The position numbers and the translations under genes are program-made. Shown here one piece after another: positions 13,277 through 14,077 of a stretch of DNA of 39,466 bases. Each line of letters starts with the position of its first letter. Position 1 is the stretch's first letter. The notes under the pieces were generated by a model. It did no database searches and was not told the origin of the DNA. It saw only the letters and a program-made list of their open reading frames with translations. The stretch is from a phage. The stretch is from the sequence record PZ445457.1. One strand, 5' to 3'.

Positions 13277-13738
13277 ACTGCTCATCGGCGCTTAGTGCGC
13301 TCTTAGTGATTATGGTCGATATATACATCTTCCCTATAATCACTGTAAGAAGTCAACTCTAAGAGTAACCCTTATGTACCACTCTCTATGGTCTACAGGG
13401 TCTCTTAGGGTCTCTCACGTAGTCTCACCGCTATGCTCCTGCGTAGCACCTTATGATAGAGCCTCTGTGGTTAACCTTATGAGCCTTGATGTACCCCCCT
13501 TTAAGAATCCTACAGAAAAATCTGAGAGGGTATCTCATAGTTCATACAAAGTGTTTCCCCCCTATGGCCTCCTTCAGTCCACTCAAAGAGTGCCACCCCT
13601 ATGGTAACTTTATGTTTACTTAATGTCAATCCTTATGTGAGACATTGGGATGACTTATGGTTCACCACTAGATGTGGTGCTTAGGGTGACTTAGTGATAC
13701 TATATGTAGTCCTCTATGTGTCCCTATCTGTAAGTGAC

Positions 13739-13868
13739 CTTTGAGTCATCACCTTATGTTTCCTCTTTGAGTCATCACCTTATGTTTCCTCTTTGAGTCA
13801 TCACCTTATGTTTCCTCTTTGAGTCATCACCTTATGTTTCCTCTTTGAGTTAACACCTTATGACCTCC
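13739..13868 (+). repeat. Tandem direct repeat, 26-bp unit ctttgagtcatcaccttatgtttcct, 4 exact copies plus 1 degenerate
   Basis: Directly visible at 13739-13842 with a diverged fifth copy to 13868; positionally analogous to the T7 left-end repeat array just inside the terminal repeat. Confidence 0.9.
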
Positions 13869-13987
13869 TTATGGCTGGCTATCCTTATGTTAACCTTCAG
13901 TCGGTGCCTTATGTTTATCAGTGACCAGTAGGCTACGTCACTAAGAGAGAATCACTATCTTACTCTGTTTAGCAGTCTCTGAGTAAT

Positions 13988-14019
13988 GAGAGAGAGAGAG
14001 AGAGAGAGAGAGAGAGAGA
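13988..14019 (+). repeat. (GA)16 dinucleotide microsatellite, homopurine/homopyrimidine tract
   Basis: gagagagagagagagagagagagagagagaga read directly, in noncoding DNA upstream of the first promoters. Confidence 0.95.
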
Positions 14020-14077
14020 CAAGTAGAATTGACTGAGTGCTTATAGTGCCTTAAAGCTGGTTTATAGTCAATAGCCT

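Follow-up and report, generated by a model that had tools for sequence, protein, structure and literature searches.

A Very Probable T7-Type Concatemer Junction within the Berlinvirus Genome Sequence PZ445457.1

Does the long segment between gene 19.5 and the first phage promoter of sequence record PZ445457.1 carry the physical ends of this phage genome? The record holds 39,466 nucleotides, and this whole stretch is called the window below; the segment in question covers positions 13277–14075. A first, sequence-only reading had seen there a genome-end region rich in CCTTATG heptamers and had placed in it a terminal repeat at roughly 13533–13738, present once in the window and twice in virion DNA. 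Our analysis indicates that the segment is very probably the concatemer junction of a T7-like phage of the genus Berlinvirus. A T7-type concatemer junction is an already well-described feature and nothing in it is new in kind. The new points are at the strain or genus level: the CCTTATG variant of the heptamer, the ATCTGTA form of the junction signal, an array of 4.8 copies of a 26 bp unit, and a (GA)16 tract.

The Terminal Repeat and Its Two Cut Sites

Three adjoining elements define the proposed ends:

13516–13532, + strand: conserved block adjoining the left cut, AAAAATCTGAGAGGGTA/ (the slash marks the cut here and below), invariant or near-invariant in Berlinvirus and aligned with AAAAATCTGAATGGGTA/ of T3 and AAAAATCTGAGTGACTA/ of T7
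13533–13725, + strand: predicted direct terminal repeat of 193 bp, single copy, delimited by boundary alignment with BA14, Kvp1, T3, T7 and phiYeO3-12
13726–13732, + strand: ATCTGTA, adjoining the right cut on its right, counterpart of the T7 class II pause signal ATCTGTT (6/7 match)

The left cut would fall in AAAAATCTGAGAGGGTA/TCTCATAG at 13516–13540, or in its fuller form AAAAATCTGAGAGGGTA/TCTCATAGTT, for which the counterparts were AAAAATCTGAATGGGTA/TCTCATAGTT in T3 and AAAAATCTGAGTGACTA/TCTCACAGTG in T7. This boundary had the layout of a T7-type left end, TCTCA(C/T)AG preceded by AAAAATCTGA(G/A)...TA, and it aligned with T7, T3, BA14 (EU734171) and Kvp1 (FJ194439), as well as with the opening bases of K1F and KP32, phages of two further genera whose sequences start with TCTCACAG. 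In the window, and likewise in BA14, Kvp1, T3 and T7, TCTCATAG was preceded by AAAAATCTGAG...GTA. BA14 was identical to the window at 29/30 positions of the left cut site, and the left end TCTCATAGTTCA was identical over 12 nt in T3 and phiYeO3-12. The end-like sequence TCTCATAGTTCATAC, which the sequence-only reading had compared with the first bases of T7, starts at 13533, and the left boundary proposed there proved exact when aligned with the ends of BA14, Kvp1, T3 and T7.

The right cut would fall in TGTGTCCCT/ATCTGTAA at 13717–13733 (fuller form CTCTATGTGTCCCT/ATCTGTAAG). This segment was identical in BA14, and its counterparts were CTCTATGTGTCCCT/ATCTGTTAG in T3 and CTCTCTGTGTCCCT/ATCTGTTAC in T7. 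A right end of the form ...TGTGTCCCT followed by ATCTGT was common to T7, T3, phiYeO3-12 and KP32, and was invariant in 10 Berlinvirus genomes (all conservation figures given here come from an alignment of ten Berlinvirus junctions). The right ends read TATGTGTCCCT/ in T3 and phiYeO3-12, ...TCTCT/ATCTGTA in K1F and ...GTGTCCCT/ATCTGTT in KP32. Both cut sites aligned base for base with the 194 bp repeat of BA14 and its annotated "concatemeric junction" feature, and also with Kvp1, T3, T7, phiYeO3-12, K1F and KP32. The second end-like sequence, GTGTCCCTATCTGT, starts exactly at 13718 as had been read. The homologous end ...TGTGTCCCT lies at 13725, so that the repeat first drawn to 13738 had the right start and ran 13 bp too far, the length being 193 and not about 206 bp. 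Alignment to the terminal repeats of T7 and T3, which the sequence-only reading had named as a check, otherwise placed the repeat where that reading had put it.

A length of 193 bp lies within the range of about 148–232 bp of close relatives. The repeats measure 194 bp in BA14 and Kvp1, 226 bp in Berlin, 231 bp in T3, 232 bp in phiYeO3-12 and 160 bp in T7. The 194 bp repeat of Kvp1 was determined by primer walking on virion DNA, and a range of 148–428 bp was quoted in that work (PMC2579914). An IMG/VR genome of 39,860 bp has the same TCTCATAG as its first bases and the right-end motif 193 bp further in, corresponding to a repeat of 193 bp.

Unlike in BA14 and Kvp1, the repeat in the window is internal and appears collapsed to one copy. 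It occurs only once, and no 15-mer of it recurs. Joining the last 80 bases of the window to the first 80 gave a piece that aligned without a break within gene 12 (tail tubular protein B) of relatives, which makes the window a circular permutation. It reads as a complete genome, circularised and opened arbitrarily inside gene 12, with both terminal repeats collapsed into one, and the junction lies in mid-window as a result of this circularisation and of the cut at another place. Loss of the terminal repeats and linearisation in mid-genome are described for short-read assemblies of T7-like phages (PMC10438801). The proposal of one copy here and two in virion DNA fits the single copy and the circular permutation. 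We infer that the repeat is present at both ends of the virion DNA, with a predicted virion length of 39,466 + 193 = 39,659 bp. For annotation, the deposited sequence should then start at 13533 and carry a second copy of 13533–13725 at its right end.

Assignment to Berlinvirus

Nucleotide identity and synteny with recognised members place the phage in Berlinvirus. A 12 kb segment of the window was 93–95% identical to vB_CECAV_058, ErnstBeyeler, BA14 and 285P by nucleotide comparison, and the junction was 80–90% identical to S523, Kvp1 and others. The junction stands in a T7-type context, with gene 19, the promoter phiOR and gene 19.5 on its left and the promoter phiOL and host-type early promoters on its right. 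BA14 and Kvp1 share this order, which continues there, as in the window, with gene 0.3; in T7 also, phiOR is upstream and phiOL downstream.

Distribution of the CCTTATG Heptamers

Within 13277–14075, CCTTATG was found 12 times on the + strand and never on the − strand. About 0.07 copies were expected in this 799 bp stretch, an enrichment of approximately 180-fold. The whole window held 20 copies against 3.2 expected, a number reached by 0/100 shuffles. The shorter CTTATG was present 13 times in the segment, and the earlier count of "at least 14" copies of (C)CTTATG was one too high unless variants with one mismatch are included.

All copies have the same orientation, with three to the left of the repeat, one inside and eight to the right. 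The CCTAAAG heptamers of T7 are distributed in a parallel way (two, three and eight, respectively), at positions 17, 41 and 60 inside the 160 bp repeat, at 175–332 for the eight beyond it, and with two copies left of the right-hand repeat, again in one orientation. The likeness to the T7 left end drawn from the letters alone was thus borne out. Each of the ten Berlinvirus junctions (10/10) had three CCTTATG in the left flank, between one and three within the repeat and between one and eight beyond it on the right, and the three on the left of BA14 and Kvp1 were positionally conserved with those of the window. No CCTAAAG was found in the 10 Berlinvirus junctions examined. The heptamers by phage group were:

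CCTAAAG: T7, T3, phiYeO3-12 (with CTTAAAG as well in T3 and phiYeO3-12)
CCTACAG: K1F
CCTTAGG: KP32
CCTTATG: Berlinvirus

The suggestion of a lineage-specific end motif therefore holds at the level of the genus, CCTTATG being present in 10/10 junctions; having such a motif is not special to this lineage, since other genera have CCTNNNG variants of their own. The T7 end architecture is confirmed as conserved in Berlinvirus, with a genus-specific heptamer.

Spacings between heptamers were collected from T7, T3, Berlin, ETEP21B, ErnstBeyeler and the window. A spacing of 13 bp accounted for 24/99 and one of 26 bp for 13/99, counts in which the copies of a tandem array are not independent observations; 13 and 26 bp spacings are found in T7 as in the window. 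Across genera, 13 bp and its multiples (26, 39) dominate the heptamer spacing, despite unrelated unit sequences.

The Junction Signal and a Proposed Maturation Pathway

The strict class II sequence ATCTGTT of T7, T3 and phiYeO3-12 is replaced at the junction by ATCTGTA, which was found in the window, in all Berlinvirus genomes examined and in K1F. The junction form in the window is TCCCTATCTGTAAG. In BA14, the "concatemeric junction" annotation corresponds to CTATCTGT at 193–200, and TGTGTCCCTATCTGTAA was invariant in the 10 Berlinvirus genomes. For T7 RNA polymerase, the seven bases of the class II signal are said to be strictly required (10.1101/2021.01.11.426313; 10.64898/2026.02.12.705533). 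In the window, ATCTGTW had a single + strand copy, that of the junction, compared with 11 on the − strand. The hexamer ATCTGT is strand-skewed as a whole, with 3 (+) versus 21 (−) occurrences in the window and 3 versus 15 in T7. Apart from the junction copy, the + strand had neither ATCTGTA nor ATCTGTT; with the hexamer skewed as a whole and higher-order Markov models expecting just 0.5–0.8 per heptamer on that strand, these counts do not separate T from A as the seventh base that is avoided.

We propose a pathway by analogy with T7 and T3. Replication would yield head-to-tail concatemers with a single repeat per junction; in related systems, the concatemer junction holds one repeat that is duplicated in packaging (PMC10438801, PMC5923468). 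Phage RNA polymerase starting from phiOR would enter the junction and pause at ATCTGT, which adjoins the repeat on its right, or close beside it; once paused, the polymerase would help to recruit the terminase (gp18/gp19) and a prohead. Sequence-specific cuts by the terminase would then create the mature right end between 13725 and 13726 and the mature left end between 13532 and 13533, maturation cleavage being sequence-specific in T3 and T7 (PMC3185743). DNA synthesis would duplicate the repeat, leaving a copy at both ends of each packaged genome, and the copy number of the heptamer array would drift through replication slippage.

Several points weigh against a T7-type junction with these ends. 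The heptamers are not known to have a function, even in T7. The physical ends and the duplication of the repeat were placed by homology only. The records of Kvp1 and Berlin begin one base later (CTCATAG and CTAATAG, respectively) than those of T7, T3 and BA14, and ±1 nt is therefore given at each boundary of the repeat. Any change to ATCTGTT was reported to abolish class II termination by T7 RNA polymerase (bioRxiv 10.1101/2021.01.11.426313), and with ATCTGTA the pausing step may differ or be absent here. Lastly, the record of one relative, ETEP21B (OR979722), draws the ends quite differently, with a 145 bp "terminal repeat" annotated on the left and on the right that begins at GTGTTACCACTAGAT, midway through the repeat as defined here, and ends within the 13 bp tandem array of ETEP21B.

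If the ETEP21B boundaries were followed, the true virion ends would lie elsewhere, for instance from the equivalent of about 13658 into the tandem array; packaging without fixed ends would be another way for the cut sites to be wrong. We hold this to be very improbable. The boundaries in ETEP21B are located in poorly conserved or repetitive sequence and look like an assembly overlap, not like cut sites, and the ETEP21B record itself contains ...GTA/TCTCATAG and TGTGTCCCT/ATCTGTAA. The canonical boundaries are invariant in the genus, are common to T7, T3, K1F and KP32, and match the ends determined on Kvp1 virion DNA (PMC2579914). The 145 bp "terminal repeat" was rejected as a definition of the ends, as a probable assembly overlap.

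Possible Role of the Heptamers

It is possible that the heptamer arrays are functionless, neutral products of replication slippage in noncoding DNA, and that the two cut-site blocks are all that matters. On the right side of the repeat, copy number and unit vary freely among close relatives, from 1 to 8 heptamers and with 13 or 26 bp units. T3 and T7 each package their own DNA preferentially even though both have CCTAAAG (PMC3276506, citing Yamagishi 1985), with gp19 and the genome's terminal 5% responsible for the preference (PMC3276506), which rules out the heptamer as the determinant of specificity. On the other side, the three left-flank heptamers and a further one within the 13882–13902 block (described below) are positionally invariant in the whole genus, and the orientation is strictly uniform. 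Every genus examined keeps a CCTNNNG array of its own at the equivalent place, and arrays of independent origin repeatedly show spacings of 13, 26 or 39 bp. This pattern of position, orientation and spacing is hard to explain without selection, and we consider functionless arrays somewhat unlikely.

The explanation that we favor, with low confidence and by analogy, is that the arrays would be reiterated low-specificity binding or architectural sites with an accessory role, assisting the recognition or the processing of the ends. A bolder version would make the CCTNNNG heptamers, spaced at multiples of 13 bp, a recognition code for a packaging or end-binding protein; together with ATCTGTA, they would define a Berlinvirus-specific packaging specificity co-evolving with such proteins. 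The candidate readers of the code are the terminase gp19/gp18 and a paused RNA polymerase–terminase complex. We regard this code as speculative and improbable. If it were true, the mechanism of packaging with direct terminal repeats, at present poorly understood, could be tested directly by comparing arrays between genera. In the full text of the literature, the only matches to "CCTAAAG" were unrelated primer sequences.

The Left Flank and a 77-Codon Reading Frame

Conservation of the junction is unequal. Two conserved features lie on either side of the repeat:

13277–13532, + strand: left flanking noncoding region, counterpart of the short-repeat region of T7 left of the right-hand repeat
13882–13902, + strand: invariant block TCCTTATGTTAACCTTCAGTC in the right flank, present in 10/10 Berlinvirus junctions

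In the left flank, conservation ranged from 0.84 to 1.0, equal to that of gene 19.5, with the exception of an indel at 13425–13449. Its three CCTTATG, at 13370, 13449 and 13475, were positionally conserved and located in or beside invariant blocks. The invariant blocks included 13497–13546, spanning the left cut, 13717–13733, spanning the right cut with ATCTGTAA, and 13882–13902. The least conserved parts were the tandem array (13750–13875) and the segment 13925–14050, with values of 0.12–0.5; the 26 bp array at 13739–13862 scored 0.12–0.4.

An alternative source of this conservation would be a small protein, encoded by the open reading frame (ORF) 13374–13607 (77 amino acids), in which case the heptamers would partly reflect coding constraint. 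The ORF matched phrog_24929 (5e-27), and BA14 annotates an overlapping coding sequence of "unknown product". Against this, the frame was interrupted by stops or by indels of lengths that are not multiples of three in 8/9 relatives, being intact in BA14 only; its start is the ATG within a CCTTATG heptamer, and it crosses the left cut site into the repeat. A protein-coding role appears most improbable. The ORF was rejected as a gene despite the PHROG match, the frame being broken in relatives and the conservation being at the DNA level, and it should not be annotated as one. Spurious ORF calls on noncoding but conserved end DNA are the probable origin of the phrog_24929 family. As this was the sole sizeable ORF between the end of gene 19.5 at 13276 and the first phage promoter at 14078, the description of these roughly 800 bp as noncoding stands.

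Variable Repeats between the Terminal Repeat and phiOL

Two repetitive tracts occupy the right flank:

13739–13862, + strand: 26 bp tandem array with one CCTTATG per unit, a variable-number repeat (Tandem Repeats Finder, TRF: period 26, 4.8 copies, 97% matches)
13988–14019, + strand: (GA)16 dinucleotide tract between the heptamer arrays and phiOL (TRF)

The unit of the array is CTTTGAGTCATCACCTTATGTTTCCT. TRF and a repeat finder gave four exact copies at 13739–13842, as had been noticed at first sight, with starts at 13739, 13765, 13791 and 13817, followed by a diverged partial fifth copy to 13862. In place of this array, the relatives carried other units, such as the 13 bp CACCTAGAGTCAC repeated about nine times in ETEP21B and the 13 bp CCTTATGTCATCA repeated about three times in ErnstBeyeler. 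BA14 and Kvp1 differ from the window in having approximately 1–1.5 copies of the 26 bp unit and (GA)0–4. The spacer from the repeat to phiOL measured 351 bp in the window, the longest examined, compared with 148–246 bp in the measurable relatives; it is longer because of the 4.8 copies of the 26 bp unit and the (GA)16. The (GA)16 tract was found only in this phage, the relatives having (GA)3–4 at that place or lacking the segment, and no IMG/VR contig had (GA)7 or longer at this locus. As a purine/pyrimidine mirror repeat, (GA)16 could adopt a triplex structure; alternatively, the site could be prone to slippage or to assembly errors.

Part of this could be an artefact of assembly, the junction being real and the copy numbers of the array and of (GA)16 not. 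Repeats of 124 and 32 bp lying where coverage would be doubled are the kind of place at which short-read assemblers misjudge copy number, artefacts near T7-like terminal repeats are documented (PMC10438801), and (GA)16 is present in no relative and no IMG/VR contig. The array is nevertheless argued to be real by an independent public genome, IMG/VR UViG_2595698839, in which the 26 bp unit CTTTGAGTCATCACCTTATGTTTCCT occurs about four times at the same place. In related podoviruses too, tandem repeats vary in the interval from the left terminal repeat to the first phage promoter, a variation documented as repeat "microevolution" (PMC5923468, Table 4), and the two tracts of the window are internally clean, with four exact copies and 16 exact GA units. 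We judge an artefactual origin to be quite improbable. The Yersinia fPS podoviruses resemble the window in having variable repeats at the same genomic position, with 23–28 bp units in 3–5 copies and 11–34 short repeats among phages 90–97% identical; they differ in belonging to another genus, in the unit sequences and in having no reported (GA)n tract (PMC5923468).

Between the 13882–13902 block and phiOL, two alternative versions of the sequence at 13925–14050 were seen among relatives. The longer one, with about 110 extra bp and the (GA)n site, was present in the window, S523, SWJM-03, Kvp1 and P151. A shorter, unrelated version was present in BA14, DS_BP2, P694, WW1 and ErnstBeyeler.

An A0-Like Promoter and an Inverted Repeat

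Two further elements lie inside the repeat and in the left flank, respectively:

13601–13629, − strand: sigma-70-like promoter directed leftward within the repeat (TTGACA, 17 nt, TACCAT; 10/12 matches)
13305–13344, no strand assigned: inverted repeat AGTGATTAT (22 nt) ATAATCACT, arms 13305–13313 and 13336–13344, identical in BA14, both arms in invariant blocks

The −35 element of the leftward site is within the invariant block ATGTCAATC. T3 and phiYeO3-12 annotate promoter A0 inside their own terminal repeats, and the site at 13601–13629 is, as judged from sequence and position, its counterpart. The window is T3-like in this respect, the promoter being outside the repeat in T7.

The inverted repeat is located about 30 nt past gene 19.5 and approximately 190–230 nt left of the terminal repeat. 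It is a possible hairpin-forming element. As single-stranded DNA, 13277–13540 folded more stably than shuffled sequences (z = −3.3). The RNA fold of the terminal repeat was not compelling, with z = −2.2 and 4/200 shuffles folding as well. At the equivalent position, T7 (569–609 of the compared stretch) and T3 (175–215) have a different imperfect inverted repeat with 19 nt arms and a 3 nt loop, so that the T7 element after gene 19.5 differs from that of the window in sequence and geometry. Chung, Nardone and Hinkle are reported to have described, in 1990, an end with a hairpin on the left side of the T7 junction and to have seen in it a possible intermediate of processing, which we take as a lead and not as a result. 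By analogy, the inverted repeat at 13305–13344 may be related to that intermediate.

Neighboring Genes and Promoters

The genes and phage promoters that frame the junction are:

11093–12853, + strand: gene 19, terminase large subunit (586-amino-acid ORF; Pfam PF22530, T7 terminase RNaseH-like domain, 9e-40)
12941–12963, + strand: phiOR-like phage RNA polymerase promoter, TAATACGACTCACTATTGGGAAG, 2 mismatches to the promoter consensus of the window
13121–13276, + strand: gene 19.5, last gene left of the junction (51-amino-acid product; phrog_2193, 2e-23)
14078–14100, + strand: phiOL-like promoter, first of the phage promoters in the genome, aligned with the annotated phiOL of BA14

By analogy with T7, the gene 19 terminase is the enzyme expected to cut the junction. 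The gene 19.5 product was nearly identical to gp19.5 of BA14 and Kvp1. The T7-type promoter consensus of the window, TAATACGACTCACTATTGGGAGA, was present in nine copies, all on the + strand. The position of the phiOR-like promoter matched the annotated phiOR of BA14 and T7, and it points rightward through gene 19.5 into the junction. Beyond phiOL, sigma-70-like sites at 14323–14351 and 14417–14446 correspond to host-type promoters, the equivalents of A1–A3. A terminator scan showed no terminator-like site between phiOR and phiOL, and an Rfam scan of 12800–14700 at E ≤ 1 gave no RNA family.

The sequence ACTTAAAG was found 15 times in the window where 1.2 copies would be expected, and most of the copies lie on the + strand. 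Its positions include 120, 12978, 12988, 14142, 14165, 14512, 19647 and 20229. Several copies were located just downstream of phage promoters, with two each after phiOR and phiOL, and ACTTAAAG may be a leader or origin-associated motif.

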